A stretch of DNA of 63,973 nucleotides, the filler included, from Folioceros fuciformis (Eukaryota): NCBI GenBank assembly GCA_049999805.1. It is 8 parts of 8 records of this genome, joined end to end, with 100 filler letters (N's around TTAATTAATTAA, not from the genome) between each part and the next. Parts side by side here need not be neighbours in the genome. Positions count along the whole stretch, not along the records: positions 16,095 to 32,049 come from JBNGIO010002943.1; 7 more parts are not named here. The stretch is one strand, 5' to 3'. Made by a program: the position numbers and the translations under genes. This document shows, piece by piece, positions 6,728 to 36,035 of this stretch. The notes under the pieces are model-generated. The model saw only the letters and a list, made by a program, of their open reading frames with translations, was not told where the DNA came from and searched no databases. Numbering within the stretch: position 1 is the stretch's first letter; each line of letters opens with the position of its first letter.

Positions 6728-6829
6728 AAGACGTCTAGGGTTCAGTTCAGATGTTGAGGAGCAAGACCTCTTGAAGCACGCCAATAGTCAAGTAAAATGT
6801 GACAAGGCTGACTATTTACCTATCCTTCT

Positions 6830-9800
6830 TGTAGGATTATTAAAGCCCAATGTGCTTAGACTAATGTGTTTAGTCTAAGATTAGTGTCTATTTGTTTAGA
6901 TTAGCTTAAGATAATCTTTAGGAAGCTTCCCTTCTTGCACAGCTTCTTGTGAGCTTCTTGTGAAGCTTCCTTGGGAACTCTTCTAGAGGGTATAAATACC
7001 CTCTTGAGCTCCCTTGCAAGATAAAGACCTTGCTTTCTCCTCTCCTCCTTCATCGTGTGGCTCCCCTAGTGATCCTTCAGCTGGTATCAGAGCAAAGGTT
7101 GTGTAGCAAGAGGGTGATGGCTGTACGTGCTGCGGATAAGATTCACAAAGGCATAACAAGGCTGTGAGGAAGGCATCAGAGTGAGGGCAGCATCCCGAGG
7201 GCCCGTGTGCAGCAACCTTGCTGCCCAGGGTACAAGGGGCTCCAGCTCTACCATGCTCAGACGCGGGCCGTAGTAGTGGCAGCGGTAGCGGCAGCGCGGG
7301 GCACCCCGCGCACCGTATGGAGTGCCCGACCTAGCATGGGGCACCCGCGCGCGCCACGCGGGGTGCCTGCCCTAGCGCGGGCATCCAGGAGGGCGCCGCT
7401 GCACCACCCCGCATCGTAGGGCACTCGCTCCTGCCAATGGTCTCACCATTGTAAATGTAGAAGGTAGCCTTCTAACAAAAGACGTGAACAGGAACAATAT
7501 GGAATCTTCGAAAGGTTCCAATGCCCTCATGATGAGAGGAAGGTCCACTTCAAAGGGGAAGTACAAGGAGTGAAGCCTTTCCCGAAGTAAATCTCGTAGC
7601 CGTAACAATGTTGAGTGTTACCATTGTCACAAAAAGGGTCACATCAGAAGGGACTGCGAGAAGTTCAAGAAGGACAAAGGAAAGGAGAAGAAGCAGAGCG
7701 ACAACAAGGCAAGGCCGAGTATCAAGCCTCACGAGGTGAATTTTGTTGATGATGGAGATGTTCTTATCTCTTCTTCCTTCGATTCTACACAATCGACAGC
7801 CGTGTATAGTCTCTAATTGGATAATTGACTCTGGAGCATCTTTCCATGTTACTCCGCATAGGGAGTGGTTTAGCACCTATGATGCTACTAGGAAAGGATG
7901 TGTTTGGCTTGGAAATAACTACGCATGCAAGATTGCAAGCGTTGGTGATGTGCAGCTGAAGTTTGACAACGGATCTTCATTCATATTGAAGGATGTTAGC
8001 CATGTTCCGAAGTTGACGAAAAGCATGATTAGCGTAGGGCAGTTGGATGACGCTGGCTACCACTGTTGGTTTGGGGATCATTCTTGGAAGATCTTCAAAG
8101 GTTCTCTTGTGTTAGCTCGTGGATTGAAGTGTGGCACTTTGTACTCACTTCATGTAACCATTGTCAAGGATCATGTGATTTGTGTAACGAAACAACCAAA
8201 TATTTCCTTGTGGCATTGTCGGTTAGGACATGTCTCAAAAAGGAATGAAGATCTTATCTCGTTTTGGTTACCTCCCTGCTTTTGCCTTCTCCGATTTCTC
8301 CATGGGTGAGCACTATTTGTATGGGAAACAGGCGAAGTCACCACATGGAGCAAGAGGTAAACACAAAAGTAAACCTCTTGAATTGGTTCACAGTGATGTT
8401 TGTGGACCTATGCCCACTACGTCACTAGGCGGTGCATCATATTTTGTCACTTTCATACATGATTTCTGACGCAAGGTGTGGGTTTATCCTTTGAGGAAAA
8501 AGGATGATGTTTTGACAATGTTTCAGAAATTCGTCACCCTTGTGGAGAATCAGTCTAGTCTTCGACTAAAGTGTCTAAGGATAGACAATGGTGGAGAGTA
8601 CGTTTCAAAGGCTTTCCAGTCATTCTGTGATTCCAATGGAATCAAGAGAGAATTGACTACCATGTATACTCCTCCCCAAAATGGTGTGGCTGAACGGATG
8701 AATAGGACCATCTAGAAGAGGATGCATAGTTTGTTGTCAAACTTTAGATTGCCTAACGGATTCTAGGCCGAAGCAGTGTCTACTGCGGTGCATCTTCTTA
8801 ACAGATCTCCTAATAAGGCTGTGGATGAGCAAGTTCCAGAGGAATTGTGGTCTGGAAAGAAGCCGTCTTACAAGCATCTACGAGTGTTTGGCTGCGAGGC
8901 ATACTACCATGTTCCAAAGGAGTTTCGAGACAAGTCGGCACCCAAGTCCAGAAAATGTATTTTTCTTGGCTATGGTAACTCTAGTGAGATGGGATACCGT
9001 TTATGGGATTCAGAAGCCAAGAAGGTTGTTTGCGGCAATGACATGTTCTTCAATGAGATCAAAATGCATAAGAAGCCTACTCCAACTGTGGAGCTGCGAC
9101 GGGTGGTCTTCCAAGAAGATGGACTTGATCGTCACGGACAGGTTGAACGTTGTGATGTGCAGGAACCCATTCCTCCACTTGTAGAAGAAGAGAGAGTGCA
9201 ACCAGCTCCGGTCAAGGCGCCTGTGCTTCGTAGGTCAGGAAGGATTTCATGTCCTCCTGACAGGTCTGTTGCATCTCTTGATTATGTCATGCTAACGGAT
9301 TGTGGGGAGCCCTCTTGTTACAAAGAGGCCATGTCAGTGACTGACAAGGACAAGTGGGAGAAGGCGATGCAGTCGCAGATGGATTCGCTCCACAAGAACC
9401 AAACTTGGGAGTTGGTTCAGTTGCCTAGGGGCAAGAAGGCGTTGCCATGCCAATGGGTGTATAAGATGAAGGACATACCCCATTATGGCAAACCCAAGTA
9501 CAAGGCACGATTGGTTGCTAAGGGTTTTAAGCAACAGCAAGGTATTGACTTTGATGAGATTTTCTCACCAGTTGTTAAAATGACCACCTTGCGATGTGTT
9601 CTTGGTCTGGTTGCGAGACACGACATGGAACTTGTCCAGATGGACGTGAAGTCGGCATTTTTGCATGGTGATCTTTAGGAAGAGATATACATGTAGCAAC
9701 TAGAGGGTTTCATTGAGAAAGGCAAAGAGAATCTGGTGTGCAGGTTAAAGAAGAGACTTTATGGTTTGAAGTAGGCACCTAGGGAGTGGTATTACAAGTT

Positions 9801-11170
9801 CCACTCATTTATGCTTTCTCAAGCCTACAAGCCTAGCGAGGAGGATCATTGCCTCTATACAAAGCAAGCTAAGGATGGAAGCTTGCTCATTCTGGTCCTA
9901 TAAATGGATGATATGCTAATTTTTGGGACTAGCAGTGATGAGATTTCAGCGTTAAAGTCAAAGTTGAATGCTCGCTTTGACATGACAGACTTGGGTGAGG
10001 CAAGCCATATTCTTGGCATGCATATTTGTCGAGATAGACAGAAGCATTTGCTTTACTTGTCTCAGACTAAATACATTAACAAGGTGCTTCAACGTTTCAA
10101 TATGGAGAAGGGGAAGGTATTGAGTACTCTGTTGCCTCCATATATGAAACTTTCGAGCAAGGATTGCCCTAGCTCTGTGGAGGACAAAGCTGAAATTGAG
10201 AAGGTTCCATACTCATCAGCTGTAGGGAGTTTGATGTATGCAATGATTGCTACACGTCCTGACATTGCCTTTGCAGTGGGAGTGGTTAGCAGGTTTATGT
10301 CAAACCCTGGTAGGAAGCATTGGGAGGCAATGAAAGGAGTTATGAGGTACTTAAATGGTACAAAAGCTTTGTGCATATGTTTTGGTAGTGAAGATGCATC
10401 TGTAGTGGGATATACGCAAGCCAATTATGCAGGGGATATGGACAAAAGGAGGTCCACATCAAGTTATGTCTTCATGTGCACTGGAGGGGCAGTCTCATGG
10501 CGATCTCATTTGCAATCGTGCATAACGCTATCTACCACAGAAGCCGAGTATGTTGCAGCGACTGAGGCGTGCAAGGAAGCCATGTGGCTTGCTCGATTAG
10601 TGGGAGATTTGGGGATCAAGGTTGAGCCGCCAGTGTTGCATTGTGATAGCTAGAGTGCTATCCAATTGGCGAAGAATCTAGTGTTTCATGCGAAGACCAA
10701 GCATGTGGAAGTGAAGTATCACTTCATTCGAGAGGTGTTGGAAGACAAGAGGGTACAGCTTATCAAAGTTCACATCAGTCAGAACCCTGCAGATGTTCTT
10801 ACCAAGGGGCTCTCTACGAAGCAATTCACACAAGCTTGGACACTCATGGGCATGACGTAGACCACTCTTCTATGAAGGTAACTTAGCCTTTAAGTGAGAG
10901 GTTGTAGGGTTATTAAAGCCCTATGTGCTTAGACTAATGTGTTTAGTCTAAGATTAGCGTCTAGTTAAGTATCATTAGTTTAGATTAGCTTAAGCTAATC
11001 TGTGGGAAGCTTCTTGCGCAGCTTCCTGTGCACTTCTTGTGAAGCTTTCTAGGGAGCTCTTCTAGAGGGTACAAATACCCCCTTGAGCTCCCTTGCTATT
11101 GAGACACTGAGAGTGTGACCTCTCTTTCTCCTCTCCTCCTTCACCATGTGGCTCCTCTAGCGATCCTTCA
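6830..11170 (+). mobile_element. Two-LTR Ty1/copia element (Tnt1/Tork-like), gag largely deleted, pol degenerate
   Basis: LTRs 6830-7079 and 10903-11170 (TGTAGG...CCTTCA), PBS TGGTATCAGAGC 7082-7093, PPT 10892-10901. Motifs: CYHCHKKGHIRRDC, WIIDSGASFH, LELVHSDVCGP, PQNGVAERMNRT, KARLVAKGF, QMDVKSAFLHG, KHVEVKYHFIRE. Confidence 0.95.
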
Positions 11171-11172
11171 AC

Positions 11173-11845
11173 ATGCGCCGCTAAAACTATGGTCTTTTAG
11201 TGATGAATGTTGATAGAAGGTTTGACATTGGACCTATGGACAATCATTTTGATGGAAGAGTATTCCACAATGTGTTCACCAGCTTTGTTGAGAAAACAAC
11301 AAACGACAATTTTTGGCTAGTGGTTATGCATGGTGTGGAAGATGCTCACACTATGAGAGACTCTATGAGGAAACTTTGTAAAGGGGGTGGCTTGGTCTCA
11401 TTTGTCTGGAGTAAGACAAACATGGCAAAATGACAGAGGAGGTTTTGAGAGTGTGGAATGTATAACAATTGGTTGGTGTGTAAAGGAAGGAAGTAGTAAA
11501 GAACACACCACAATGATGCCAGGTCCACTGCAGGGAACCTTTAATGGCGGAAGATCTATTATACCACACAATACTGCCGTCAAAAAACATGTCTACCTCT
11601 CCCACGATAAGCGTGTCGTCTGCCCATATCAGAGACCATTGGGGTTCATGGGGAGGATTGTGCGGAGCTTCAGCAGGGAGGGGGAGTGGGTTGTGGATGC
11701 ATGCTTAAGCAGCAAGACTACTTTGTCGACAGCATTGCTTAGTGGGCGACATTGTGTTGCAATAGAGGAGACAAGAGATGCACTACCTATATTCCTTAGC
11801 GAATCCATGGGTATGAAGTGTTGTCTGATGCGCATGAAGAGCTAA
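11173..11845 (+). pseudogene. Degenerate beta-class amino (N4-cytosine/N6-adenine) DNA methyltransferase-like domain (N6_N4_Mtase type)
   Basis: CPYQRP-LGFMGRIVRSFSREGEWVVDACLSSKTTLSTALLSGRHCVAIE matches the beta-class pattern HPTQKP..L..I...S.EG..VLDPF.GSGTT..AA...GR..IGIE. Upstream FVWSKTN...VECITIGW matches the IIWxK...E segment. One frameshift near 11430 and one stop. An acidic tail follows to ~12171. Confidence 0.72.
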
Positions 11846-15994: not shown

Positions 15995-16094
15995 NNNNNN
16001 NNNNNNNNNNNNNNNNNNNNNNNNNNNNNNNNNNNNNNTTAATTAATTAANNNNNNNNNNNNNNNNNNNNNNNNNNNNNNNNNNNNNNNNNNNN
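15995..16094. other. Artificial assembly spacer (also 32050-32149, 41316-41415, 49433-49532, 54578-54677, 61160-61259, 62746-62845)
   Basis: Identical 44N + TTAATTAATTAA + 44N blocks; the 12-mer puts stop codons in all six frames. Confidence 0.98.
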
Positions 16095-16105
16095 CAGCTG
16101 CATAT

Positions 16106-16504
16106 TGTTGAGATGTCACCCCCGCCATGCTCAAAGGAGGTTAAAACAAGTTAGTTGAAGCAAGATGCAGAATCCCAAAAATAAGAGCACTATAACAAAG
16201 CTCTTAAACTCAAATAAAAAGGAGAATTACAAAAACAACACAATACAAGTGAAGAGGGAGTTAGACTGCAAATACTAAGTGGGTTCATCCCTTCTTTTAT
16301 GGACCTATGGGTGGCACTCTCATTTCGTGCCCAATATGGGATAAATGACCCCAAACCCTACAATACTTTTTTGCCTAACATAGCAAAGTCTAATAAGCTA
16401 TATTTATATATTGATCATAACCTTAATCACTCTTACCACTAATTAGTACAAACTCAATAAGCTAGATTAGCACTAATTAATCTCAACATTAATTATGCTT
16501 AACA
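16106..16504. mobile_element. Solo LTR with 5-bp TSD CATAT
   Basis: TGTTGAGATG...CTTAACA flanked by CATAT (16101-16105, 16505-16509); nearly identical to 51188-51589. Confidence 0.93.
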
Positions 16505-16559
16505 CATATGTCTAATGATGAATAAATAAATAAATATCCGTAAAAGAGATAGTGAGACT

Positions 16560-19500
16560 ATTGAGTCTTATATCAATAAGTTTTGCACAGCTCATGCGAC
16601 TCTCTCATATTGTGGGACCACATTTACAGAATCTCAAGCTGCCATTAGCTTCTTAGCATCTCCGCCTGAAAGTTATTCTCAATTCATTGGTTCACAGAAT
16701 GCCACCATTCAAGCTTCTAGCCCTGGTGCTACTGTAACTCTTGAGCAAGTGTTTGGAGCATTGATTGCTGAAGAAAGAAGGGGAAGTCTACACAAGACCA
16801 AGTCCAACTCACAGCAGAGCTCAAGAGTCCTGTTTACCTCCAAGGGATGTCGTAGTGGCAGAGGTAGAGGGCGAGGTAGCCCTAGACAAGGTGCAGCATC
16901 TACTTCTCGTCAGCCCAACCTTCAAAGGAAAACCTTCACCTGCGATTGGTGCAATATACCTAGGCATTAGGGGAAGGATTATAGGGAAAAGAGAGCTGGT
17001 GAACCCGGGAAGGAGTGTTCGTCCCCAGAATCTAATGTTGCAAGTTCCAAAGGACTATCCAAAACACCTTCTATCTCAGCAGTTTGCTTGTCTTCCATTC
17101 AGATTCAGACGGATATGTGGTTTTTAGATTCAGGTGCCACCTGCCGCATTTGCTATGATAGGAGTGCTTTCATTGTTTTCAACACACTTTCTGACCATCA
17201 CCAGTACTCCTAGGGGATGATAGTGGGTTAGCCATAAAGAGCTCAGGTTCTGTTAAGATCCAATTACTTGATGGCTCCATTCTCCCCATCTCAAGTGTGT
17301 TATTCATCCCATCTATGACCAAAAATCTCATGTCAGTGATGCAATTGACAGAGGAACAATACTGTAGAATATGCTTTGATCACAATGGTTGTTCTGTGAC
17401 TAGTCATAGTACCCCAGCTGACTTTTTTATAGGAACCCCATTTAATGACTTGTACCTCCTCAACGTTCAAACACAGTATGTCCAAACTCCTATTGTCCAT
17501 GTGCACAAGGTTCCGGCCTTTCTCCAACTCGATTATGGTACTGCCGTCTAGGGCATGTTAACTTTAACAGATTCTATACCTTAGTTGATAACTATGTCTT
17601 GCGAGATCTCTTATCTTTCTCCTTTGACAATAAAGCCTTTTGTGAATCTTCTCAGTTGAGCAAGACCATTTCTCAACCCTATAAAGATTTGAACGTATCT
17701 CGTGCTATCAGCCTTCTTCATACTATCCACGGTGACATTTGTGGTCCTATGTCTACCACGTCTTTTGGGGGAGCATCCTACTTCATTACTTTCCTTGACG
17801 AGTGGAGCCGATACTGTATAGTGTTTGTTCTTGCCCACAAGAGTGAGGCCTTATCCTGTTCTTAGACTTATTCGACATCTTCTTATTGTCAAACTGGGCA
17901 CAAGCTGAAAATTTTGAGGACAAACAATGGTGGTGAATACACGAGTCATGCATTCAAGGATTTTTGTGTTGGAGAGGGAGTCCTTCATCAATTCACAGTC
18001 CCCTACACGCCAGCACAAAATGCCCTCGCCAAACGCAAGAATAGAACACTTTAGGAGGCCACCCTATCCAGCTTATCTTTTGCAGGCCTAACTAAAGGCT
18101 ATTGGACAAAAGCCCTCATGGTTGCAAACTATGTTCAAAATAAATTGCCTGCTAAGGACACCTTATGAGCGGTAGACTTGTAAGAAGCCCCGCATTACTC
18201 ATCTTCAAATATTTGGAGCTCCCGCAGATGATTTCATTCCTCAGCATTGAGAAGTAAGCTTGACCCAAAGGCAGTACGATGCATTTTCATTGGATACTCA
18301 GATGAAGTAAAAGGATACAAGTTGTTTGATCCTACCTCCCAACAAGTTTCCTTCTACAGAAGTGTTGTTTTTCATGAGAATGCCCTTCTATGATGTCATG
18401 AAGTTGCTTTGGCACTATTTGCCCTCGAACCCACAGTTTCTATCCATGGTGTTCATGATTTGGACGATTTTCATACTGATGCTGATTCTGACATCTCCAT
18501 TTTTTGATGTTGATGAAGTACCCAGTTCAACTCCCTCGGCTTCAGGGGGCAAGACAACATTTGGGACACCTGATCTTCCACCACCAATAGTCTCCCAACC
18601 AGATGAGTCCTCTGTTCCCTCCATTGACGAACCCTCTAAAGTTGATCCTGTCACTGCTCTTGATGACAAGCCTGCTTATGGACCAACTTTAGAAACATCT
18701 GAACCACCAGTTTCAGAAGCAGTTGAACCTCACCATTCTCAGACGATTGAGCCTGCAACAGAACTAGTACTACATCGATCAACTCGTCACAAACCACCAT
18801 GTAGTGAATGGCCTGAACCTCGCTTTGCAGCTAGCCTTGTTGCAAACACCTCAAACTCCTCAGTTAGTTTCCATACCTTAGAGCCCACAACTTACCAGGA
18901 GGCAATTATTGGCCCCAAAGTTGATCATTGGAAGAAGGCCATCAAGTCTGAATACAATTCTCTAATATCTAACCAGACTTGGAAACTAGTAGATTTGCTG
19001 AAGGGCCGTAAGCATGTTGCTTACAAATGGGTATTCAAAAAGAAGTTGAATATTGATGCCAGTGTAGGTCGTTATAAGACAAGGTTGGTTGCTAAAGGTT
19101 ATAGCCAGATAGCAGGATTGGATTATAATGAAACCTTCACCCCTGTAGTTAAGTCCACTTCTATCATAATACTACTTTCCCTAGCTGCTCATTATGGACT
19201 TCTGGTGCATCAGTTAGATGTTAAAACTACTTTTGTGAATGGATCACTAGAAGAAGAAATTTACATGGCTCAGCCACGAGGTTTCGAAATAGATATGGAT
19301 AAGGTTTGCCAGTTGCTCAAAACACTCTATTGCTTGAAACAATCAAGACGAGCCTGGAATGAAACATTCCATGCTTTGCTTATTGAGCTAGGGTTTACAT
19401 GCCTAGACGTTGACATTAGTGAATATATCTTATGGGAAGGTGCAAACTTTCTTATCTTAACAGTTTATGTAGATGACAACTTTCTATTTAGTACATCTGC

Positions 19501-21390
19501 TACATCGATGGCTAGGATAAAAGGAGTTCTGCTTTCTTGTTTCGACATGACCAACTTGGGCCAACTTACTTTCTCACTTGGTGTCCAATTTCATTTTTCT
19601 GAGGACAGACATATCATTGAGATTCACAAGGATACATCAACTGCTACAGCGATTTAATATGTTTGACGCTCGCCATGTTTCAACCCCTATGTCAACAGGT
19701 GATAAGCTCTCTAAGGAGCAGTGCCCAACGACAAAGGAGGAAAAATATACAATGGCAACACGTCCCTATGGGCAAGTTGTATGTAGTTTGATTTATGTAG
19801 CTTGAGGGGTATACAATAGGTATCATCAGGAGCCACCACATCGTGGTGTGATTACCAATCGGCTATCGCCTCATCGAAAAATCTGGTTTTTCATGCACAT
19901 TGAGATTACTCACCATTTTATTCGGCAGGCTGCTGATACATGAGAGGTGAAGGTCCATTACATCCCAACAACAGACAATATAACAGATCTCCTAACTAAG
20001 GTTTTACCCAAGGCCTCCCCATTCAAGGCAATCTATAGCAGCAAGACTCAAGCTTATCACTATTACATATAAAACTGGTACAGCACACTAAGCTGAGATG
20101 CAATCCCCTGTCTTCAAATGTGAACATGGTAGTCCTGATCCCTTATCTTTATCATCAGAGCCTTCAGTAGGTTTTCAGCTCTTTTGAGCTTGTCGAGTAG
20201 GGTTGCAAGTCAAGGAACAGAATTTCATTAGTAGTTGAGGCAGAAGGTGACTGAAAGATCAGAGAGGTAGATAAGGTGGATGAAGCATCACTTACAGCCA
20301 ATCCCTTCTTCTTCCTCTTCAAAGTCGTCATATCTCTTTTTCTTTTGAGCCTTCTCTTTAAAGGGAGTGACATGACTGCCCTTAGGAATTTTGGTTGCAC
20401 ACACTAACACCATCTGATCATCCTTGCTCAGTTTTTCTTTTGCTCCAGAGGTGAGATTGTAGGCATATTAATGATCATGTTCCCCATCTTCAGCAAGTAG
20501 AGCTCTCTCCATTACTTCACGATACTGATGTATGGACAATCTCCCACCTTTTCCATCATAGGTCTTCTCAAATGAAACCTAAGGGGGTGTATCATAGACT
20601 TGGACTTTATCTCTTGTAGGTGTCATTGTCTTCAAGTAGACCTTTGCATAGTCTTTCTGTCTTTGCTCTCCTTCAGTCTTGCTCGTGTCTATGTTGGAGG
20701 GATAGTGTTCACAGATTGATCGGTGAAGAATCCATTAGCGACATGAGTATCTCAAAGCAAGAATTGACTCTCGTCCACATTGAATGCACTCTATGCCTCT
20801 TGAAGCAGCTTTGGGAGAGACCTCCATCAGCACACAGCTGTGGTTGCAGCCCTTAATCCAAATTCCCAACAGACTGATGACGAACCAGGCAAGTATAAGA
20901 GCAGCAACAAGATTGGACAGCTCGAATAAAGAATGGTGGAACGCCATTGTGCTTTATCCTGCAAGTTGGAGCGTAGAGCTAGCTGGAGCGCCACAAGACT
21001 ATAGGCTGAGCATGATGGAGTTAGACATGAGGAACAGACGTAAGAAAATTTGTCACTCTTGCACTCATGGAGTTGTGCATACCACCTGATACTTGTTTCA
21101 GGGTTTAGGTTTAAATTCCTTTTGGCTTAATTCTAAATCCCAATTATTAGACTAAGAGGGAGCAAAGGAATATTGATAACGCATAGGTTATATATTTTGC
21201 GATAGCCTAATAATTAGTTACAACTACTTTTCAGACTCTTGTATATATGCTACTTTTTCCCATTACACAAAATAACTATTTTTCATTTTGCATAGCCGGG
21301 TGCTCTTCGTGCCCATGGTTGTGCCCATGGTTGTACCCCCGCATCTTCCATCGCGTATATGTGCATAAGGACTCCCACTAGCTCAGTAAA
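16560..21390 (+). mobile_element. Degenerate Ty1/copia element (gag end, PR, IN, RT, partly deleted RNase H, ~1.1-kb 3' spacer with antisense gene, PPT ~21154, degenerate 3' LTR; right boundary approximate)
   Basis: CDWCNIPRH knuckle, WFLDSGAT, TIHGDICGP, YKTRLVAKGYSQ, HQLDVKTTF, LTVYVDD. Purine tract AAGAGGGAGCAAAGGAA followed by TATTGATAAC. Confidence 0.88.
20114..20947 (-). pseudogene. Antisense two-exon gene in the copia 3' region (exon1 20947-20296, intron 20295-20203, exon2 20202-20114), putative C2HC zinc-finger protein
   Basis: A single frame runs from ATG 20947 with three TAA/TAG stops. GTAAGT donor, TACTAAT branch site, acceptor ACTTGCAA (AG mutated to AA). The phase-1 splice gives in-frame SLLDKLKRAENLLKALMIKIRDQDYHVHI*. 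Confidence 0.7.
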
Positions 21391-21752
21391 GGACATTGTA
21401 GGCTTGCAAGTTTTGCTAATTTAGCAACTGTATGTGAGGTAACAAAATGTGACTAGGATTTTGGCAGAGACAACATAAGGGCTGCATATAGGTCCTCTTC
21501 ATGCATCACCTTTCCGTATGTGCTCTCACATTGTGTAGCAAGTGTTCTAAACATGCCAACATGTCCTTTTCCTTAAATCCTTTACCAGCCAAACTTAATG
21601 TGTTTGCCATTTTGAAATCGAATGTTGACGTTGGATTGATGATTTCGGGATTGATGATCAAGGTTTGCTGCCATACAATGAATCGAAGGTATTTTCTATT
21701 ACTGAAAAGAGATGGAAAGTCCCATAATGAATCTACAAAATGTGGTAAGGGG

Positions 21753-24700
21753 CTAGGCCTAAATATCAGTTCGCCAGGGTACGACCTGGCGAACCGACAT
21801 GCCATGCCATGAGCATGGCCTGCCTCTCCCATACCCCTCTCTCTCGTATCCGTGCCAACCCGCGACCAAGCCACCGGGGGCGAGGGGAACTAACCCGCGA
21901 TCAGGCCACCGGGGGTGAGGGGAACTTCCCGTCGTCCTGAATACTACGGCGATACTTTGGCACGATACAAAGTCAAACTCGTCGGCACACACAGCGTTTA
22001 GGCATGCGCAGCTGGGACGCACGGAGGCAGGTGTGGAGGAGGATCACCAAGACGAGCAGAGAGGATGATCACCAAGACTGAGTTTTTGATTATTTGCAGC
22101 ATTGGTCAAAACATATGAAGGGAGACATTACTGGCACCTACATCGCACCTACACCTACGCTAGTTTTCTTTGTCTGCTGATAAATTCCAAGTCACTCTCT
22201 TCTTCTTTTTCTTCGGTGGTGAGAAGAATGGCTTAATCCTGACGATGTTGGTGTCCCCCTCGTTGGTGGTGAATGCTTGAAGAGGCTGCCGTGTTGCAGG
22301 CATTTCCTGCTCATATGCAATCAAATGCTGAACATCCATGAGTGTACTTTTCACCAAAAGTGCTGCATCCCCCACGACTTCCTTATTCTTGTGCATCTAA
22401 TTCACAATAGCATTGCAATCTTGCTCTAGGAAGCGAATCTGATCTTCTGTTCCACTTTCGTTACATAAAACACCCTCCACAGCGGGTTGCAGGTTGCACG
22501 AAACGCTTTCCATCAACTGTTCTCTATTATCACATAAAGCAAGAGTTGTTACAGGCCCTTGAATTACCAGACCATTCGTTGCTGTATAATAACGTTTCAT
22601 TCGGAGTGTGTATGAGAGCACTCCAAGCATATCCTACACTTTCACGATGTGTTTACAAATAAAGCCTTTCCTCCCTTGAGCACACTCACATGTAGCCCAC
22701 ATGGAATCTGCATTCTCAATTGTATATGTCACATGGGCATCTGTTGAACTCCTGCATAAAGCTGTGGTCCAAGGTGGGGAAGGCAAAGTAACATTATCAT
22801 CGTCAATCAGAGTTGCCCCATCTATTACAGTGTGCACCAATTTCTCCTCGGTTTGTGTTAACCACATACCCTCCTTCTTTGCAATGGTTCACATACCAAT
22901 AATGGGACGCAATTACGAAGCACAATTGATGTAACAGCCAGTCTAATACCCTGCCAGCAAGAGATGCCCTCGTAAGACTAAGTTTCTGCTTAAAACACCG
23001 ATGCTATGCCTCTATAACAGAGGCACAGTCTTGCCCTGCATGCGGAAGCATGCGGGCATTTTTATGAACATGCCTGCAATCAAAACAGGCCTTGTGAAGA
23101 TGTGTATGTGCACAAGCTTGAAAAGGGAGAATACGAGGTTAGAGCTATGGACTAACCTAGTTGTGCACCCCGGGTTGTTCTGAAATAGCCCACGAATGCG
23201 GGTTGCCGTTTCTCCCACTTGGCATAGAAGGAAAATAGCAAATGCTCAACCTCCCGAATTGTATCTCAAATTGTTGTGCTGGAACCCTTGACGTACATCA
23301 GTTCACCTAATGCCCCATATGGCTTCCTTGTCTACCCTCTTTTGGACTTTCTTAATAAGATTAAGGAGCCAAGCACAATGCACATGCCAGAGGTAAAGAA
23401 GAAGAGGAACACTATAATTGTAAACCTTTCGAATTGCAGCAATCTTAGCTGCACAAGGGCAACCAATTTGCATCCTTACTTAACGAAACCTCATGAAAAG
23501 ATGTCAACCACCTGGCTATGGTGTCACTTTTATCGTCCTTTGCCAAAACCCACGCTATCGAAATACCATTCATATGAAGGTCGAAAGCCATAATTGTGAA
23601 GAGCTGGTACTTGTACTGGTTTACACCAAACGTGGAGTCAATCCCGAGCACATTATTCGTACCATGTGTCAAACAGGTCTGAAGCATGAACGGGGTCTCA
23701 ATCCCCAAACAAAACGACTGATCAATAGTGGACTTGTGAAACACAAATGCAGCATTGAGCCATGTTCATATACCCACACTAATATTGTCATCTTGATGAT
23801 GTTTCCACACTGTACCTTGCAAGTCGACGGGAAGATTGTCAATGTCTGCACTTGTCAAGAAATCATCTCTAACCTGGACATACTGTCACTCATACTCCAA
23901 GCTCGTTGAAAGCCCACAACATTTTGCCCGCACCTGCTCCTAGTGTTGTCTAAGAATCTCTGACACAAAAACATTACATAGTAAACCATGTTTCACCCAT
24001 GCCTTGTTGTCAGCACTCAAGTGAGAAGCCCTGACATTGTTTAGCATGCCTATGTACTCTAGGCCATGACACACTCTTTCAGAAACATCCACGTGCATAG
24101 TTTTGTATAATGTTACTTGAGCAATTACTGGCCATCTTCGTAGCTGTGCAATGACAAACGAAGCTTGACAACCGTGTTTGATGCTTTCACCGTTAGCAAT
24201 CCAAGGCTGTCTACGCTTCTTCTCACCCTCCACAGTAATAGGTACAGGTGGTGGAGGCATGGGAACATTCCGCAATTCCTGTGGCCCATATGCACAACAA
24301 TAAATGCAAGCAAAACACTAAAGATGAAATCTTTCAATGATACCAACAAGCAGAAAGTAAACGGATTGAATCCTTAGGGTCCATACATACCGTGTTGTGA
24401 CAATGGCTGCATCTAGCTTCAAACAACTTACTGTTGAAGTATTGCTGGCCGGCCCTCTACGAGATGCCTTGTAATAATTTGTAGGAGCATGTGACAATGA
24501 GTTCATGTCCTCTATGAAATCTTGCACTCTAGTCCAAGGGATGTAAGCTAGTTGTTGTTGTTTGTCTTGGCCAGGACAAAATGGATGCTTTTATGAGATT
24601 GCTGCTATTCCAAGTCATTGAAAGAAAATTTCCCTTCACCAGGCCTCTGAACTGCAAAAGGACAATGCACTGCAACCTCATCCATCGCTCGAGCACGATC

Positions 24701-25004
24701 AGTATACATGCATCCTCCATAGCCTTCAGTCTTTCAACTCTTACCGTACGTCATGCTTTGAGCAGAGTGCTCTCTCCGTTCTTGTTCTCAACTGAAACGA
24801 ACGAAGGGCGAGCAGTATCGCCGTGGGAATTGCTACGACAATCGGGGCGACGGGAACTTGAATTAGTTTCTCGTCGCTCATGGTAGCTCGGTCTCAGGTT
24901 GGCACGGATAAGAGAGAGAGGAGAAGGGGAGAGGAAGGCCATGCTCATGGCATGGCATGTCAGCTCGCCAGGCCGTACCTTGGCGTACCAATATTTAGGC
25001 CTAG
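21753..25004 (-). mobile_element. MULE-superfamily DNA transposon with ~140-bp terminal inverted repeats
   Basis: CTAGGCCTAAATAT...CATGCCATGCCATGAGCATGGCC...TATCCGTGCCAACC at 21753-~21892 is mirrored at ~24863-25004. The element contains a transposase pseudogene. Confidence 0.88.
22160..24720 (-). pseudogene. MULE-type transposase with SWIM zinc finger (resembles the Arabidopsis At1g60560/At4g13970-type SWIM family)
   Basis: IDSTFGVNQYKYQLFTIMAFDLHMNGISIAW (DDE core), CECAQGRKGFICKH (SWIM), HGCQASF...HVDVSERVCHG, CAYGPQE. Probable intron (GTATGT donor near 24390). Multiple stops. Confidence 0.85.
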
Positions 25005-26740
25005 TGGTACCGTAAGGAAGACTCCTACAAACTATCTAAGCATCTATTTGTTGATTCTAAATTCATAATTTTTTTATTTACAATTTAAGAAAATTATAAA
25101 TTGATCATTTCAATCTATATTACCATTTATCTTAGAAATTATTTTGAACAAATAAATGGGAGAATGCACCCTTGCCTATAAGGCACACACATTAGAAATT
25201 TATAGGTAAATTCTAATAACCCGAATTGTCATTGTCTTCAATTGTTATTATATTTAAAATAAAATTATATGATTGAAATACTAAATTAAAATTTTTGATT
25301 ACAGGATTGCATTTTCCTATTGAATACTCTTCTTCAAATTAGAATATTTTCGAGAAATATATTAGAATTTATAGCCTATAAATTAGACTAAATGTTATAT
25401 CATTTTTTACAGGTTTCTAGGGTACAACTGCCAATTAGGCAGTTGTCATAGTGTACCTCCATTGAATTGTTGGAACTATTCAAGGGACATGCACTATGCT
25501 AGTTGACTTAATTGCAGTACATTCTAATTCCTGTAAAGAAAATAAAACAAAAAAATTATATTTTGTTGTTCATTGTTTGTTTTTTTGAAAATTGGTTTCT
25601 AATCAAGAAAACATAAAAAATACATTTTCTGAAAGCTAATTAAAATTTGCATCTATCTGGATGCAATGTATAACACAATGTGTTGATACCATCTTGATTT
25701 TAGGTGTGTTGTAAATCTATTATATATAATATAATACAATACAATACAATAAAGAACGTTCATCTCTACATATGTTGAGTAAAATATATATTACTTAAAC
25801 ATTGTGAAAACTCAAAATACTTAATTGTCTTACAAATAGTCACCCCTTCTTAAACTAGTATTCTGAATGAGTGTGATCTTTAACTTAACAGACACACTCT
25901 AATGAAACGGTGTGCCTTCTTATATCTAAAACCCTAAGTTGATATAAACAACACTCTATGGGGTAGGTATTCCAACATAGCAACTAACGTTGCTGTTTCT
26001 AGTGTGCATATGTTCCCAGTAGATTCAGAGCCAAATGCGGAGATTAAAGGGGATATTACTAGAGTGGAGAGCTTTGCTTGGAAGGGAAATGATCCATGGA
26101 GGAGGATTAATCAAAATCTTTTGCCGAGTTGAAAGGAATCTATGCAAAGATCGGGAGAGGAAGGAGGAGGGTGCCACTCTAAACATGTTGATATTTGTGA
26201 TCAACTGGCACACGACCTTAGGCGCATCTAACCACAAAGCGTGTAAACTTGCATTAAGGAAAAACATGAAAGCAAATAAAGTATATAGTCTAAGAACATG
26301 AAACAGTATGTAACCGTCACTAACCCTAAGTGGTAGCAATGTATACTTAGGTCTAAATAATACCTTTAACACTCCCACTCATTGCTAACCACCTTAGTGA
26401 GTTGTAGGCATTTACAAGTTAATCGAATTAACGACTAGCTAGAACCCAAAACCCTGAATCTACATAGGGTTTATCAGAGCTCCTTCACTCGTGCAGTTGT
26501 GCCAATCGAGTCTTCGAGTACTAGGAGGAAACGCTCCTTGAAGCTTGCATCTCTAACCTCAGAACCCTGTACCCAGAGGAATCACCTATGGCGAACAGGG
26601 GTGCAGTAGGAGCGATCATGAGCGTCTCGATTCAGATCTTAGACTCAGAGACTAGCGACTCTGAAGCAACTCTCTTCAATCAGCAGATCCAGCTCCTAGA
26701 TCAGGGGCACCTGGCGTCGGAGGGGAGTTAGGTTGAAGAC

Positions 26741-27624
26741 ATGGGCGCCGCTCCCACTGCCTCTAATGAGTTTTGCGAATACCCTCCGCCAATTCCTGCA
26801 CCAAGATATCCAACTCTGGAAGAAAACCGAGCTGTGTGCATCTGCCCCGAGCATCCGCCACATTGTCGTCGGCATGGGCGGACACCCAAGTGGCTTCACA
26901 TGTGCAGACGAGAGAGCTGCCACATGAACAGATACTGGGAGGATTGGGTAAACAAGCTGAAGCAGCGAGAGACTGAGCTCAGGAGGGAACTGGAGGAGTC
27001 AAGGATGCGTCATAACCCAACTGCTCACTCTGCAGATCAAATTCCTAAACCCGAGACTCCTGTTCTACCTAATTTCATTTTGTCTTGTGGTCCCCTTAAC
27101 AGCGCTTTTCTACCTCAAGGAAGGGAGACAAAGATTGTGTTGCCGATGAGATACCGAGGGAGAACTTTTTCTTTGCCAAGAGGCCACCCTAACAAGACGG
27201 TGAGGCTTATCTCCGACAATGACGGTGGAAGCGACCCTCTAACTCTAGAGATGTATGTCTGTACTGAGACAGGAATAGCCATGAAAAGGGAGGAGTGGTA
27301 CAGATGGGGAGGTTCTAGTGGGAACTTTGTATCCTTTTATGGTAAGCACCTTCAAAACTCTAAGGTCTCCCACTCTTGTTGTTGTTTAGAGAAGGACTGA
27401 AAGGCTTACACTGAAGCACTAACTGTACATGTGTGTTACTTGCAGTTGCCAGGGATAGACCAAATGAGGAAGCAGTGATACCCTATGCAACTGAGGACGA
27501 GAACATTGAAGAAGAACCAAAACATGATTTCGACTCCAACTACCTTGGGATACTAAAAGCAAGGGGGGAAGAAAGAAGATCATTGTTCTTTGACGGCACA
27601 AGCTCAGGATCTGAGACTCCCTAA
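26741..27624 (+). CDS. Antisense two-exon gene of the copia element (exon1 26741-27341, intron 27342-27445, exon2 27446-27624; 259 aa), Cys/His-rich motif plus coiled coil
   Basis: G|GTAAGC donor, CACTAAC branch point (27417-27423), TTACTTGCAG acceptor. The phase-1 splice joins ORF 26741 in frame to ORF 27433-27624. Contains CICPEHPPHCRRH...LHMCRRESCH. Confidence 0.75.
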
Positions 27625-28845
27625 GAACTGTGAACACAATTACATCACTGGTAACACACAACAGTCAGTCATTCCTCAAACTGACATTTTCAATGCTGCT
27701 GGAGTCTAAGACTCCTAGCATCTTCTTAAACTGGTTGTGCTTTACCTTAGGAAGGGCTTTAGTGAGCAGGTCAGCTGCATTAGTTTTTGTTGGTATGTAC
27801 TCAAGACAGATCTGACCTGAAGCAACTACCTCACGAATGAAGTGGTGTTTAACTTCGATATGTTTTTTCCGTGCATGAAAGACAGGATTTCGTGCCAGGG
27901 TAAGTGCAGACTGATTGTCGCAGTAAATTAACGTCGGTTGAGTCTGCTCCTGTCCCAGATCCTTGAGTAACCTTCTCAGCCATATGTCCTCCTTTGCAGC
28001 TTGAGTGAGAGCAAAGTATTCTACCTCTGTAGAGGATAGAGATACTGTGGATTGTTTCTTAGATGACCAGGTAACCATGCCACCAGCTAATAAGAAGACA
28101 TAGGCCGACATCGACTTTCTTGTCTCTGGGTTTGATGCCCAATTGGCATCACAATAACCAGCCAGTGTAAGAGAATCCTTGGATGACTTTTGTTTCGAGT
28201 AGTGTATCCCATGTTTACTGGTACCTTTCAAGTATCTGAAAATGCGTTTTGCTGCTGACCAATGTATTTGTCCAGGATCCTTCAAGAATTGAGAGGCCAT
28301 ACTCATGGAAGGGAGATATCAGGTCTCGTATGGTTAGAGCAAAAGATCAAGGAGCCAACAGCTTGAAAATACGGTACGCTCATCATCTGGTTTTTCTCTT
28401 AAGCAGTTTGAGGTGACTGCTCTTTCAATAGTTTACTGCCAGCCTCCATAGGGGTTAAGGCAAGTTTAGCATCCAGGAGCTTGTACTTGTGCAACATATC
28501 AAACATGTACTTTTCTTGGTGTATAACTAAAGTGCCTTGTTGAGGATCTCGTAGGAGTTGTGTGCCCAGACAGTAGGACAACTCACCAACGTCCACCATG
28601 TCGAACCTTCCCAAGAGTAAGGACTTGACACGTTCAATGTATGGCACGTCAGTACCTAGGAGAATATAGTCATCAACGTGCAAGGCCAAGATAACATAGC
28701 CAGGGTCATCATGAAGCAGATACACATTGGAGTCTGCTGAAGACTTCATGAAGCCCAAACCTCGTAAGAACTAATCTATGTACTCATACCAAGCTCTTGG
28801 ACTTTGCTTTAGGCCATAAATAGTCTTGAGCAACTTGCAACTAGT

Positions 28846-29059
28846 AATAGAAATAGTATAGATACTTTATATAGAAACGTACTTTAGATAGAAATAGTAT
28901 AGTCTAGCAGCAGCATATAAAGTAAACATGTAAATAGAATTATATGTAAATAACCAAATACAATATGTCCTAAAGCTTGGAACCCTAACTGCCGGATGCA
29001 TGTAAGGTGTCCGTGCATCTAACGATCTCTCCTCTTTTTTCATAAAACTTTTCTTCATA
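28846..29059. mobile_element. AT-rich ~210-bp insertion (probable degenerate solo LTR) interrupting RT
   Basis: The RT reading GKEDW|CKLLKTIYGLKQ is split by unrelated AT-rich sequence. Termini and TSD are degenerate. Confidence 0.5.
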
Positions 29060-30365
29060 CCCAGTCCTCCTTGCCTGCTAGCAATCTCATGACCTTCGGG
29101 CTGTTGCATGTAGATCTCCTCCTCCAGCTTGCCATGAAGAAATGTTGTCTTGACATCTATCTGATGTATAAAGAGAGAGAAGAAGGCTGACATGGCAAAC
29201 AGAACTCAAAGGGACTGAGCCTTGACCACAAGGGAGAATGTATCATGATAGTCTAGCCCAGGGACTTGTGAGAAGCCGTGAGCAACCAGCCTGGCCTTGT
29301 AACGGGCAATGGAACCATCAGCTCGATACTTCAACTTGAAGACCCACTTACTCGTCACAATTTTCCTCCCTTGAGGGGGTCTACAAAGCTCCCAGGTTTT
29401 ATTAGAAATAAGAGAGTTGTATTTAGACTTTATAGCATCTTTCCATTGCTTGGATTTAGGATTGGTAAGAGCCTCATGATAGGACTGAGGCTCATGGCCA
29501 GGGTTGATTGCAACATGAGCTGTATCTCTAACCGTCTCTCCAGATCTAGTGGCAACCGAGCGCGAGACAGGTTGTGGCTCCCAACGTCCAGCCCAGGCCT
29601 CCGGTCTGTAGGGTTCCTCTAACCATTCCTCCCGAGGCCTATAGGGTTGAGAAGAGCGGCGTAAGGGAACTGAATGTTCGGGAGGATCAGGGAGAGGTAA
29701 CACAAACTGTACTGGGTCATCAACCTCAAGGTCTGAAACAGGTAAGTCGATGGGAGCAGAAGGAACATGAACTATTTGTGTAGATTGTTCTTAACCTGTG
29801 GCTGAGACTGAATCAAACAAGTCGTAATCATTGCTATGAGATTCAAAGTTGTGAGGTGGCAAAGGTGTGTCCAGAGGTGGAACAGTAACATCAGTGAAAG
29901 AAGGATCAGAGATAGGAAATTCAACGACATCTAAATCTGCCTCTGAGGATAAGTTCTCTTCTGATTTAGGTACTAAGACTGGATATTCATAGTCTACAGG
30001 ATCAACCACCTTTGGAGGCTTCAAGACAGGGCGCTCATCAAATACAACAGTCTTAGCATGACTGACTTTGTGTGAGATAGGGTCAAAAAGCTTGTACCCA
30101 TGAATTCTAGTAGTATAGCCAATGAAAATATGCCTTCTAGACTTATAGGCAAACTTATGTCGTAGCTTGTCAGGTATGTGGGCATAGGCTACACTACCAA
30201 AAATGCAAAGATGAGATAAGTTAGGCTTATGACCTGTCCACGCCTCAAACGGTATTACCCCTCGAAGAGAAGAGACGACAATCCTGTTTTGAAGATAAGT
30301 AGCGACTTCAACTGCTTCTGCCCAAAAACGTGTTGAGTTATCGAGCTCTATATAAGCTAAACTCA

Positions 30366-30555
30366 TGTGGTGTTAGTTATCCTGGTTGGGTTCATACTAA
30401 ACTAGTTCTAGTTATAGTAAGACAATGGTGATGCGTATTGTTTTTGGTTGTGACTACCAATACCACCCTCTCTTCTCTCCTCTCCTCTCCTACACTTGCG
30501 CATAGACTGGAGTCGATCCTATTGACAAAACGTACTGATAACCTCCCCTGAAACA
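30366..30555. mobile_element. ~190-bp TG...CA insertion (probable solo LTR) interrupting integrase
   Basis: Integrase sequence (NGRVERRHRTL ... FWAEAV) is split by TGTGGTG...GAAACA. No clean TSD. Confidence 0.5.
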
Positions 30556-32149
30556 GTAAACAACGAGCTGTATCCTATAGAGTACGATGTCTCCTCTCAA
30601 CCCTTCCATTCATGTCAGAGTGATAGGGAATTGTCAACTGTCGAGTAATCCCCTTATCCTGATAGAACTGTTGGAAGGCTGTGGAGAAATACTCTTTAGC
30701 ATTGTCTGATCGTGCACTTCCACTGCTTGCTTGTTTGTCCTTTAGCATAGGCTAAGTATCTTTTGAAACTCTCAAATACCTTGCTCATATGCTGTAGGAG
30801 CTCTGTTACTGTGAAATGAGACATATCACCTTCAAATACAACAAAGTAGCGAGCTCCTCCCCATGAGGCCACAGACATGGGACCATAGATGTCTGTATGG
30901 ATGAGATCAAGAACATCTGTGGGCTTGCGTTGCGTGGCTTACCACTGCCAAAATGGGACTTAGACTGTTTCCCATGTACACAGACCACGCACAAATCCAG
31001 GTCAGATAATTCGGATTCTGTAAATCCTGTTACCATTTTTTCTTTGAGTAGCCTTTGCATAGCCTTAATGTTGGGGTGACCAAGCCGGCAATGCCAATGT
31101 AAGGCCTTACTTGCAGTTGACTTCACTACAGCTGCATGTGCTATAGGCTTGGATGAAGTCGGGGAAACAAAATCTAGCAGATATAGATCATACAAGGGAG
31201 AACCCCTAGATATGACCCTAGTGGGAGAGTCCAATGTGGAGATCACACACAAAGGTATGTCGTGTGGTTTGCAAAGGTACATGTAAGGTATTCTCTAGCC
31301 TCAAATTCCCTCCATCCTTCAAGGAGATTTGGACTGTTCCGACACCCTTCATTGGGACTTCTGAATTATCTCCTAACGAAACTGCTGATTTGTGGCAGGT
31401 TGGAACACGTTCATATGTAACAAACTGCTTTTGAGATGAGCACATGTGATTCGATGCTCCACTGTCAAGGAACCATCGATGTGAATCACGAGCAACTGAA
31501 TTAAGGCAAGCTCCAAGCAACCCCGTCGTCGAGGCTCTCGCAATATATCCTTCAGGTTGCTTTCCCTTTGTTGCCTCATTTGCTTCTCGTTTCCTGCAAT
31601 CTTTAATCCAATGCCTTGGCTTATTGTAGTAATTGCAGTTACCGGGCTTCTTCCCACCTTGAAGAGAGGTGTTGTTTCCATAATTGGATGACTGGCCCTT
31701 GCCACGTCCAAAGCCTCCTCGTCCTCTACTTCTGCCTCGTCCTCGTCCTCGTCTCGAGAACAAAGCAGTATCCGTCTGTCTGTGGGAAGATCCTGCTCCA
31801 CTAAACCCTGATTTATGCATGTGCTTTCTGTTAGCCTCTGCTTATAGCAAAGCTCCAACTAACCTTTGGACTATCATGTTTGTTGTAGCTGGTGTATTGG
31901 CAGTTGCTGGTACAACTGTTGTTGCAACCTGTTGGCTAGAGCTGCACTGTTCATAACTCGGTGGTAATGATGCCAGTAACTGGATGGCTGCCCTGGACTC
32001 AGAAATTATAACACCACACGAAGCAAGCTTAGCTCTTGCAGCTCGAAACNNNNNNNNNNNNNNNNNNNNNNNNNNNNNNNNNNNNNNNNNNNNTTAATTA
32101 ATTAANNNNNNNNNNNNNNNNNNNNNNNNNNNNNNNNNNNNNNNNNNNN

Positions 32150-33934: not shown

Positions 33935-36035
33935 ATCGTACCCTTTTAGCCCTGGCAGACCATTACAATCTCCTAGTGCATCAACTGGATGTCAAAATAG
34001 CATTTTTTGAATGGCCTGCTAGAGGAAGACATCTATATGATCCAACTTGAAGGTTTTATCATCAACACCGACAAAGTTTGCAAGCTCCTCAAAACTCTTT
34101 ATGGACTCAAGCAGGCTTCTTGAGCCTGGTATGAGGTATTTCATAAGCTCTTGATGGAGCTAGGTTTCACCTGCCTTGATGCAGACACCAGTGTATATAT
34201 CTTATGGGATGGAGCAGACTTCTTGATCCTTACAGTTTATGTCGATGACAATTTCCTTTTGAGCAATTCTGCTACTCTTATGGCTCGAATCAACATGATC
34301 CTGCTTTCTAAGTTTGACATGACCGACCTTGGGGAACTTACCTTCTCCCTTGGTGTGCTGTTCCATCTCAATCCGACTAACAGAACTATTGACATACATC
34401 GGGATCACTTTGTTCATCAGCTCCTCAAGCATTTTAATATGCTTGATGCTAAACCAGTGACCACTCCTATGGCTCTTGGTGAGACACTTTCTGTTGAGCA
34501 ATGTCCCACTACCAATGCGGAGAAGAAGCTTATGGCCAACATTCCCTACTGACAAGCTCTTGGCTCCTTGATTTACCTTTCTGGTTCGACACGGTTGGAT
34601 ATTACTCGAGCAATGGGAGCTGTGAGTCAGTTTTTAGAGAACTCAGGTTTGTCTAACTAGACTGTTGTTAAACATATATTTTGATACTTGAAAGGAACTC
34701 CCCGACTGGACTTGCGTTTTTCGAAGTCCAAGACTGGTTTGGACCTTTCAGCTTATTGCCATGCGAATTGGGCAGGGGACCCTGATACCCGACACAGTGT
34801 TGTTGCCTATTGTACTTTCATGGGCACTTCCACTGTTTCCTGGTCTAGCAAGAACTATCCACTATATGTCTTTCCTCGACAGAAGCCAAGTGTGCAGCCA
34901 TGACTCAAGCTTCCAAGGAAATTATATGGATAGGCAGCTTTCTCAAAGAACTCCAACAACTTCAGGCAGATCCCACTCCATTATTATGTGACAACCAATT
35001 AGCCATCGCACTCTCAAGAAATCCTGTGTTCCATGCAAGGTCCGAGCATATCGAAATTAGCCATCATTTTATTCGTCAAGCAGCAGAGGGTAATAGTGTC
35101 AAATGCTCTTACTATGGACAAAGTCTCAGACCTTCTCATGAAGGCCTTGTCAAAACCATTACATGAAAAACACACTGCTTCTGCTAGTATTTGTGAGATT
35201 CCTGCTGTTGTTACTAAGTGCACTGCCCATTAGCTAGGCTTGCTTTTCTAATCCCCCAGTGGGAGTTTGTTGTGTTTCTTGAGTGTATTCACCATGTCTT
35301 TTCTGGCCTTCATCAGCCTTGGCAAACTCCTCTGTCAAAGCTACAAACCCACAGGGATAATCAGTCACTTCCCTTGCAAACAACAGATTCTCAACATAAC
35401 TTTCAAGTCAGCTACTTACTGCCGTATGTGACCCACACACCAGTTTCTGTCATGTGTGGTTCAGGTTTCTTCACTTCCTCTTTTCCTGCTCTCTTCGTGC
35501 CCTTAGCAGACTTAACAGGCTTGTGCCCCCACTCTTTCTCCATGTAGACCTCGTCATTAGAATCCACTGGAAGAGGGATTTCCATGTAGGCCTGCATCTC
35601 TTTGGGAGGTGGCCTTAGGGCCACCCATGCTATGCCTCCTTTTTCCTTTTGTTCAGTCTCTTTGCATGTCGTCTTGTGAAAGTCGGCTGCAGGCGCAGCA
35701 AACACTCTTGAAGGGATGCCCTTGTCGTCGACGTTCTGTAGTCTTCTCGCCATCTTCGCCTTCGAACTATCAGCTGGCACAGGACCGCAACTTGGGGACT
35801 CGAAGGAGACTATGTTTGAGTCAAGACAATGCATTGCATGGAGACAAGACTGCCTTTCAGAGAATTTCCTGACTGGAATCCAGATTCTCTCACAACCCAG
35901 GCACTTAAGGCCTTGTATTACATCGTCCATGGTCGACCACACAAGACGTCGATGTGCACACCTGCTTGGAGATAAAGATATCTAGGTGCAGAGGATAGCG
36001 AGCGAGAAGACTTTGATCACAAGTAACATCAACTC
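33935..36035 (+). mobile_element. Degenerate Ty1/copia RT-RNase H fragment plus 3' spacer with antisense gene (related to 16560-21390)
   Basis: HQLDVK, YILWDGADFLILTVYVDDNFL (cf. YILWEGANFLILTVYVDDNFL in the 16.5-21 kb element), NPVFHARSEHIEISHHFIRQ. Confidence 0.9.
35234..35930 (-). CDS. Intact antisense two-exon gene of the copia element (exon1 35930-35420, intron 35419-35341, exon2 35340-35234; 205 aa), putative C2HC zinc-finger protein
   Basis: A|GTAAGT donor, GACTGAT branch site, TTTGTAG acceptor. The phase-1 splice is in frame (...VTYG-TLTEEFAKADEGQKRH...EKQA*). Motif CLGC-x17-HAMHC. Confidence 0.78.

Follow-up and report, generated by a model that had tools for sequence, protein, structure and literature searches.

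The minus strand of positions 20114-20947, in a 63,973-base stretch of Folioceros fuciformis DNA (the window; eight parts of assembly GCA_049999805.1 joined end to end, of which JBNGIO010002943.1 supplies the one in question), carries what we hold, at somewhat better than even confidence, to be a decayed copy of an accessory gene of one Ty1/copia lineage, lying antisense behind pol. This gene, called a20 here, stands behind the copia element el16. Two genes of the same build, a35 and a26, stand behind the elements el34 and el26. The interpretation draws on the architecture common to the three genes and on a Cys/His motif, C-x2-C-x17-H-x3-C, that a20 has in common with a35.

Architecture of the antisense genes

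The first-pass annotation of this DNA had described at 20 kb a second antisense gene, pseudogenised, and such a gene was found behind copia RNase H (Table 1). Its frame is interrupted by three in-frame stops (TAA 20735-20737, TAG 20579-20581 and TAA 20468-20470). Two ATG codons are available to exon 1, and comparison with a35 makes the second (20827), 13 residues ahead of the first Cys of the motif, the likelier start. The T content of the predicted intron is 37%, against 25% in exon 1. The predicted acceptor ends in AA, and the difference pointed out earlier between ACTTGCAA in this gene and ACTTGCAG in the element at 26-27 kb was recovered at 20210-20203 and 27438-27445, respectively. The 29-codon in-frame last exon was also recovered, as 28 open residues and a stop behind ACTTGCAA. 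AATAAA follows 192 nt behind the a20 stop and, in the case of a35, 161 nt behind it.

All three antisense open reading frames (ORFs) that abut a pol stop end their first exon in G/GTAAG (slash, exon end) at codon phase 1. A branch motif of the CTRAY type (TACTAAT, CTGAT and CTAAC in a20, a35 and a26) lies 20-25 nt ahead of each acceptor, and the introns contain 30-37% T, compared with 20-25% in the exons. Introns measure 79-104 nt, exon 1 comprises about 170-200 codons, and the last exon, which stays in frame, has 28-58 full codons. Each gene meets pol tail to tail, with 41, 0 and 40 nt from its stop to the pol stop (a20, a35 and a26), the last figure being counted to the el26 pol stop at 27667-27665. 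The coding frames contain 3, 0 and 0 stops in the same order, against 3-16 in the other five frames. In a20 and a35 the antisense protein begins with the C-x2-C-x17-H-x3-C motif, followed by about 140 charged residues.

The stretch 16101-32049, chosen to be clear of N blocks and of the 64-bp tandem array at 32687-32957, was compared with contigs from DNA runs and a presumed-RNA run. Contigs from two DNA runs of the same organism show zero differences at the a20 locus. On 20357-20888 the word depth is 9.7 and 12.4, the level at which the contigs of the locus itself stand (9.1-9.6 and 12.4), so no further a20 copy is seen at 80% likeness, which is not a statement of copy number. The presumed-RNA run X4 has no contigs on 19825-21420 (a20) or on 26209-27804 (a26).

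The a26 region has a several-fold higher summed word depth. Among the differences listed (40 of 3,014), the a26 gene shows 27011 alone, in the bisulfite-like run. On 16101-32049 this run, X3, has 791 C>T and 781 G>A changes, with 14-115 for each of the other kinds of change, an excess that marks it as a methylation library converted by bisulfite or by enzyme. Upstream of a26, in its frame and with one stop between, a 47-codon open frame runs from an ATG at 26588 to 26731 (+); it may represent a 5' leader ORF or have arisen by chance.

Table 1. Positions of the antisense genes and copia elements in the window
Feature	Position	Strand	Description
a20, whole	20114-20947	-	two-exon antisense gene behind el16 pol, decayed (probable)
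a20 exon 1	20296..20947	-	first ATG 20947, second ATG 20827; 3 stops in frame, 8-16 in the other five
a20 motif C-x2-C-x17-H-x3-C	20711..20788	-	interrupted by TAA 20735-20737
a20 intron (predicted)	20203..20295	-	93 nt, phase 1; donor GTAAGT; TACTAAT 20233-20227; 3' end ACTTGCAA
a20 last exon (predicted)	20114..20202	-	28 residues and TGA 20116-20114
a35 exon 1	35420..35930	-	ATG 35930 to phase-1 GTAAGT donor; 0 stops in frame, 3-12 in the other five
a35 motif C-x2-C-x17-H-x3-C	35826-35903	-	CLGCERIWIPVRKFSERQSCLHAMHC
a35 intron (predicted)	35341..35419	-	79 nt; GTAAGT ... CTGAT ... TTTGTAG
a35 last exon (predicted)	35234..35340	-	TAG 35236-35234, directly adjoining el34 pol stop 35231-35233 (+)
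a26 exon 1	26741..27341	+	ATG 26741; behind minus-strand el26; 0 stops in frame, 5-11 in the other five
a26 Cys/His cluster	26837-26923	+	CICPEHPPHCRRHGRTPKWLHMCRRESCH
a26 intron (predicted)	27342..27445	+	104 nt, phase 1; GTAAGC ... CTAAC ... ACTTGCAG
a26 last exon (predicted)	27446..27624	+	58 full codons after split codon; TAA 27622-27624
el16	~16530-20072	+	copia, decayed; host of a20
el16 RT to pol end	18311..20072	+	RVT_2 E 3.8e-62 (Pfam); pol stop 20070-20072; RNase H fragmentary
el34	33970-35233	+	copia fragment, 5'-truncated: RT C-terminus, RNase H, pol end; Pfam RVT_2
el26	27665-33760	-	copia; host of a26
el7	6829-11170	+	copia; LTR pair 80.7% identical
el36	~36330-39952	-	copia
el61	~61260-63973	-	copia; 3' end cut off

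The Cys/His motif of a20 and a35

Across the six frames of the window, the pattern C..C.{15,19}H...C has only two matches, and these lie in a20 and a35, in line with the exact spacing first reported for a20 and its 35-kb counterpart. The a20 motif frame (20711-20788, minus strand) reads CIQCGRESILALRYSCR*WILHRSIC. BLASTP aligns it to the a35 motif over 30 residues without a gap, with 10 identities (G, C, C, R, I, S, R, L, H and C) that include the R, I, S, R and L said to be kept. Using hhalign, the match stretches to 38 columns, and S-N-I is common to both behind the last Cys. The TAA at 20735-20737 stands opposite a Gln codon, as had been claimed; the CAA>TAA change named along with it is a supposition and not read directly from the sequence, the a35 codon being CAG. 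Five of the 10 identical residues are encoded by different codons in the two genes, which places the likeness at the protein level. The distance from the motif His to the donor is 142 residues in a20 and 139 in a35, and both donors are GTAAGT at phase 1.

The elements carrying these two genes are also related. Within the window, el16 and el34 are each other's closest relatives by reverse transcriptase (RT), with 70.5% nucleotide identity over 390 bases (blastn) and 69-70% amino acid identity in RT (tblastn). The RT domains had been called closely related, and this holds as to kinship, the degree of relatedness being moderate only. The same spacing, the donor distance, the gene position and the kinship of the elements offset the weakness of the alignment itself, and the motif is taken as inherited, most likely from a common ancestor of both elements, as judged by sequence comparison. 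The broken copy matters mainly as evidence of this inheritance; alone, it would be an instance of ordinary transposable element decay.

Coding capacity and alternative explanations

An exhaustive HMMER search of 1.84 billion representatives yielded a single real relative, a protein of 167 residues (P0001, E 8e-32) encoded on one Logan contig of 1,658 bases. Two other candidates, P0002 and P0003, proved spurious, being tandem repeats in translation, with 8 and 18 stretches. P0001 shares 48% identity with a35 across 149 residues (E 6e-43), a span that starts immediately after the motif and closes at the donor's Y-G. The alignment has three gaps, each of them in frame, and zero stops, and P0001 continues five residues past the a35 donor position (YG/CEYPT), as expected of an unspliced copy. 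That the frame stays open at this divergence argues for a protein, but P0001 was found because it is open, and the argument is therefore suggestive and no proof.

The main rival to a protein-coding accessory gene is a spliced non-coding antisense copia RNA, which would act as antisense or double-stranded RNA and to which the frames and the motif would be incidental. What is common to the three elements is indeed the splice architecture and not the protein sequence, and the tail-to-tail layout means that the transcript must overlap pol. Moreover, according to the available text of a preprint, a subset of Arabidopsis Copia families produces antisense transcripts that have several exons, are non-coding and begin in the 3' long terminal repeat (LTR) (bioRxiv 10.1101/2024.04.02.587720). 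However, a35 and a26 are both open from the ATG to the donor, over 170 and 200 codons respectively, and then on through exon 2. The a35 frame is held open in P0001 with gaps in frame only, and the motif is kept as amino acids in spite of the codon differences described above. We regard a non-coding RNA as unlikely.

A host-gene fragment that was captured with its intron, in reverse, by an ancestral element, and that has no role for this element, appears more doubtful still. The intron does show ordinary plant-type signals, and gene capture by LTR retrotransposons is documented (PMC7264820), but captured genes are usually sense-oriented and present in few copies (PMC7264820). Neither the 1.84 billion representatives nor 5.8 billion clustered proteins brought up any relative but P0001; word-indexed searches yielded nothing for a35 or a26, and one made with the a35 and P0001 alignment returned P0001 alone, proteins of near-query length being covered. 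There were no relatives among viral contigs or metagenome contigs, no sequence match in the PDB, nothing in NCBIfam for a35, a26 or P0001, and a best ESM Atlas score of 0.77, which is under the lead threshold. Within the window, tblastn with a20, a35, a26 and P0001 found no additional copy. The fact that the architecture is kept across elements with RT only 39-44% identical also argues for long retention in active lineages, against a passive capture.

A coincidental motif in two unrelated open frames of decayed spacer DNA is highly improbable, given the identical spacing, the nearly equal distance to a donor of the same phase and the same gene position in the two most closely related elements. 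Shuffling the a20 protein produced the pattern in 40 of 200,000 cases, and within 5 residues of the same donor distance in 3 of 200,000. In first-order Markov copies of the window, exact matches averaged 0.22 per copy, and two or more occurred in 5 of 200. These chance figures are somewhat optimistic, the pattern having been chosen after seeing the data. The points that speak for coincidence are that BLASTP gives the motif an E of only 0.015 for the single pair, weak when taken alone, that blastn detects no nucleotide similarity between a20 and a35, and that tblastn of the a20 reading against the whole window misses the a35 motif at E up to 10.

Evidence against an inherited motif and the zinc finger question

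The weak E value and the missed tblastn match also weigh against our own interpretation of an accessory gene with an inherited motif, and so do several other results. Behind the motif, the global alignment of a20 and a35 gives z = 0.04 against 500 shuffles, despite the RT identity of 69-70%, so that the rest of these proteins is as highly diverged as first stated. Set beside the element's other proteins, a20 and a35 are thus alike in the motif alone, while a35 and P0001 keep their 48% over 149 residues. At an equivalent place, with a Cys 18 residues ahead of W-L-H, a26 has C-x1-C-x17-H-x1-C, which is not the a20/a35 motif, and every comparison of a26 with a20 or a35 was without significant similarity. 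Its kinship to the other two is therefore one of architecture. At the a35 ligand positions, P0001 has V, A, P and T, with the L-G between the two Cys positions kept and a 14-residue deletion before the P and T; since it is well conserved elsewhere, either the motif is dispensable in at least one lineage or the P0001 copy is defective. Finally, a flanking LTR pair was looked for, also by short words, and none was found for el16, el26 or el34, so that of a placement between pol and the 3' LTR it is the pol side that is supported.

These results bear directly on the proposal, made in the first-pass annotation, of a conserved zinc finger of the BED/C2H2-like kind. The ligands are absent from the one additional copy found, P0001, so that the refuting condition named in the first-pass annotation, ligands not kept in additional copies, applies to 1 of 1, and with a26 the motif is not conserved across the antisense genes either. 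Membership in a BED or C2H2 family is not supported: no Pfam family, these included, was found for a35, a26 or P0001 at E up to 10, and a20 gave MPP6 alone (E 0.11). The ligand signature of BED fingers is C-x2-C-x(n)-H-x(3-5)-[HC], and a 17-residue loop is within their range, so that C-x2-C-x17-H-x3-C in a20 and a35 agrees with the BED signature, while the BED family profile is not matched. In classical C2H2 fingers, a loop of 12 residues separates the second Cys from the first His, and another His completes the ligands; the a20/a35 motif differs in its loop of 17 residues, in having Cys as the last ligand and in lacking a Pfam match. The likeness to both kinds of finger thus lies in the ligand order, C-x2-C ... 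H-x3-[CH], and the difference lies in the loop, in the profiles and in the absence of a predicted fold.

With AlphaFold2, a35 gave a mean predicted local distance difference test score (pLDDT) of 35, with about 32 in the motif region, from an alignment of 2 sequences; for a26 the mean pLDDT was 45, and the helix at 64-90 alone was confident. The chances that the a20/a35-type motif is a small zinc-binding module seem to us about even. A conserved BED-like zinc finger together with a role in host conflict is unsupported and exceeds the data.

The host elements and the surrounding window

The window is a plant-type transposable element nest, in which Pfam detects copia-type gag, protease barrel, integrase and RVT_2 domains at no fewer than six places, as well as one MULE transposase fragment and one host-like exon (Solute_trans_a). 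In el16, 16530-19654 (+) contains Retrotran_gag_2, Pol_BBD, gag_pre-integrs, rve (weak) and RVT_2 in this order (Pfam), which is the Ty1/copia domain order. Its pol is split into at least 5 pieces, and RNase H is present as fragments only.

By identity to the RT C-terminus of el34, el16 (70%) is followed by el26 and el61 (39% each), el7 (27%) and el36 (24%). The carriers of the antisense genes (el16, el26 and el34), with el61, are thus el34's closer relatives. An antisense gene is present at three of the five copia 3' ends in the window. There is none in el7, where the 3' LTR follows within about 50-250 nt behind pol, and none was seen in el36, where merely about 340 nt remain behind pol.

The repeat at 16101-16504 was considered as an LTR of el16 and is probably not one; its word depth is thousands-fold above single copy, and it looks like an independent high-copy repeat. 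It matches 51182-51589 at 96.8%, the copies being 404-408 bases long, and the summed word depths reach 26,537 and 48,366 in the two DNA runs, where single-copy contigs have about 10. The repeat is also present in contigs of the presumed-RNA run and is without an Rfam match; Rfam gave no match anywhere in the window.

Other features were noted beside these elements. About 0.8 kb beyond a20, inverted repeats of about 140 bases (21753-21893 and 24863-25004, 84.5% identical) surround a MULE/ZSWIM-type transposase fragment at 23448-23765, and 21753-25004 is a MULE-like DNA transposon. Within el26, a stretch of about 202 bases (30325-30526) with a summed depth of 2,751-3,797 is missing from 3 contigs in each of two DNA runs; part of it recurs in inverted orientation, 80-87% identical, at 36197-36307, and the stretch looks like a high-copy miniature element inserted in the copia element. 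Tandem arrays occur in or beside copia at 32687-32957 (64 bases x 4.2) and 37297-37616 (80 bases x 4).

Just past the 3' LTR of el7, a 158-residue open frame (11369-11842, plus strand) resembles prokaryote-type N6/N4 DNA methylases in their C-terminal part (Pfam N6_N4_Mtase, E 6.8e-7; NCBIfam adenine-specific methyltransferase, E 3.6e-4, far under the cut-off), which is odd within a plant-like transposable element nest. Seven pairs of 44-base N blocks, 12 bases apart, are found at 15995-16094, 32050-32149, 41316-41415, 49433-49532, 54578-54677, 61160-61259 and 62746-62845, one of which falls on the expected continuation of the el61 RNase H.

Proposed expression and comparison with known systems

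If a20 is the remnant of an accessory gene, we propose that such genes would have a promoter of their own, in the 3' LTR or close to it, and that their transcripts would be spliced. At its 3' end the mRNA would overlap the sequence coding for RNase H. Retrotransposition would leave the intron in place because, being antisense to the genomic RNA, it would not be removable from it, which is the principle of antisense-intron retrotransposition reporters. The protein would combine a small head that binds metal with a charged tail, and may serve the element as an accessory factor binding nucleic acid or chromatin, by analogy with the nuclear antisense proteins of Grande and of human T-cell leukemia virus type 1 (HTLV-1). 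This zinc-binding and nucleic-acid step is the weakest of the explanation.

In its most far-reaching form, the proposal would be that of a copia lineage with a true third gene, intron-bearing, coding, antisense and expressed from the 3' end, whose C2HC zinc module targets nucleic acid or chromatin and which regulates expression of the element or counters its silencing, as a counterpart of HBZ with an intron protected by its antisense orientation. We consider this complete picture improbable.

Antisense extra genes of plant LTR retrotransposons are already known, and most of the described cases are Ty3/gypsy elements with long spacers. Among them are Grande, RIRE2, Retand and PvRetro13, whose spacers are in the kilobase range. 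The case here is a short, intron-bearing and apparently coding antisense gene in copia, with a Cys/His motif that can be tested. It gives a compact setting in which to study the role of such genes, and it illustrates how an intron can persist within a retroelement. Full-text searches of the literature brought up no description of an antisense gene of copia that is coding and has an intron or a zinc finger; the words "intron" and "zinc" are absent from the Retand paper, as is "antisense" from Neumann et al. 2019 (PMC6317226).

The known antisense ORFs between pol and the 3' LTR (aORF-3R), such as Grande gene23 and those of RIRE2, Retand and PvRetro13, have no database relatives and no assigned function (PMC7264820 and, as far as its available text goes, PMC11963269), and the antisense gene of Grande was shown to have its own promoter, according to a review (PMC7264820). 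The genes described here resemble them in their position behind pol, their antisense orientation, the lack of similarity to known proteins, a family-specific sequence and a promoter of their own, which is presumed in our case. They differ in that the host is a Ty1/copia element, the gene is short (about 200-260 codons), an intron is predicted and a Cys/His motif is found at the N-terminus. The ORFs of Retand itself carry a Transposase_28 domain, which is a further difference.

The antisense transcripts of Arabidopsis Copia, as the available part of the preprint presents them, are like the units described here in belonging to copia, in being antisense and spliced (predicted here), in their restriction to related families and in starting near the 3' LTR. 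They are unlike them in being non-coding, whereas here two of the three units are fully open and one has a homologue at the protein level.

A more distant comparison is with HBZ, the antisense gene of the retrovirus HTLV-1, expressed from the 3' LTR (PMC7264820 and the available text of PMC11963269). The two have no sequence relation, HBZ being a bZIP protein of a vertebrate retrovirus, and the likeness is one of layout, that of a minus-strand accessory protein whose expression comes from the element's 3' end and which, in the case of HBZ, has a role in the nucleus. HBZ also has a spliced isoform.

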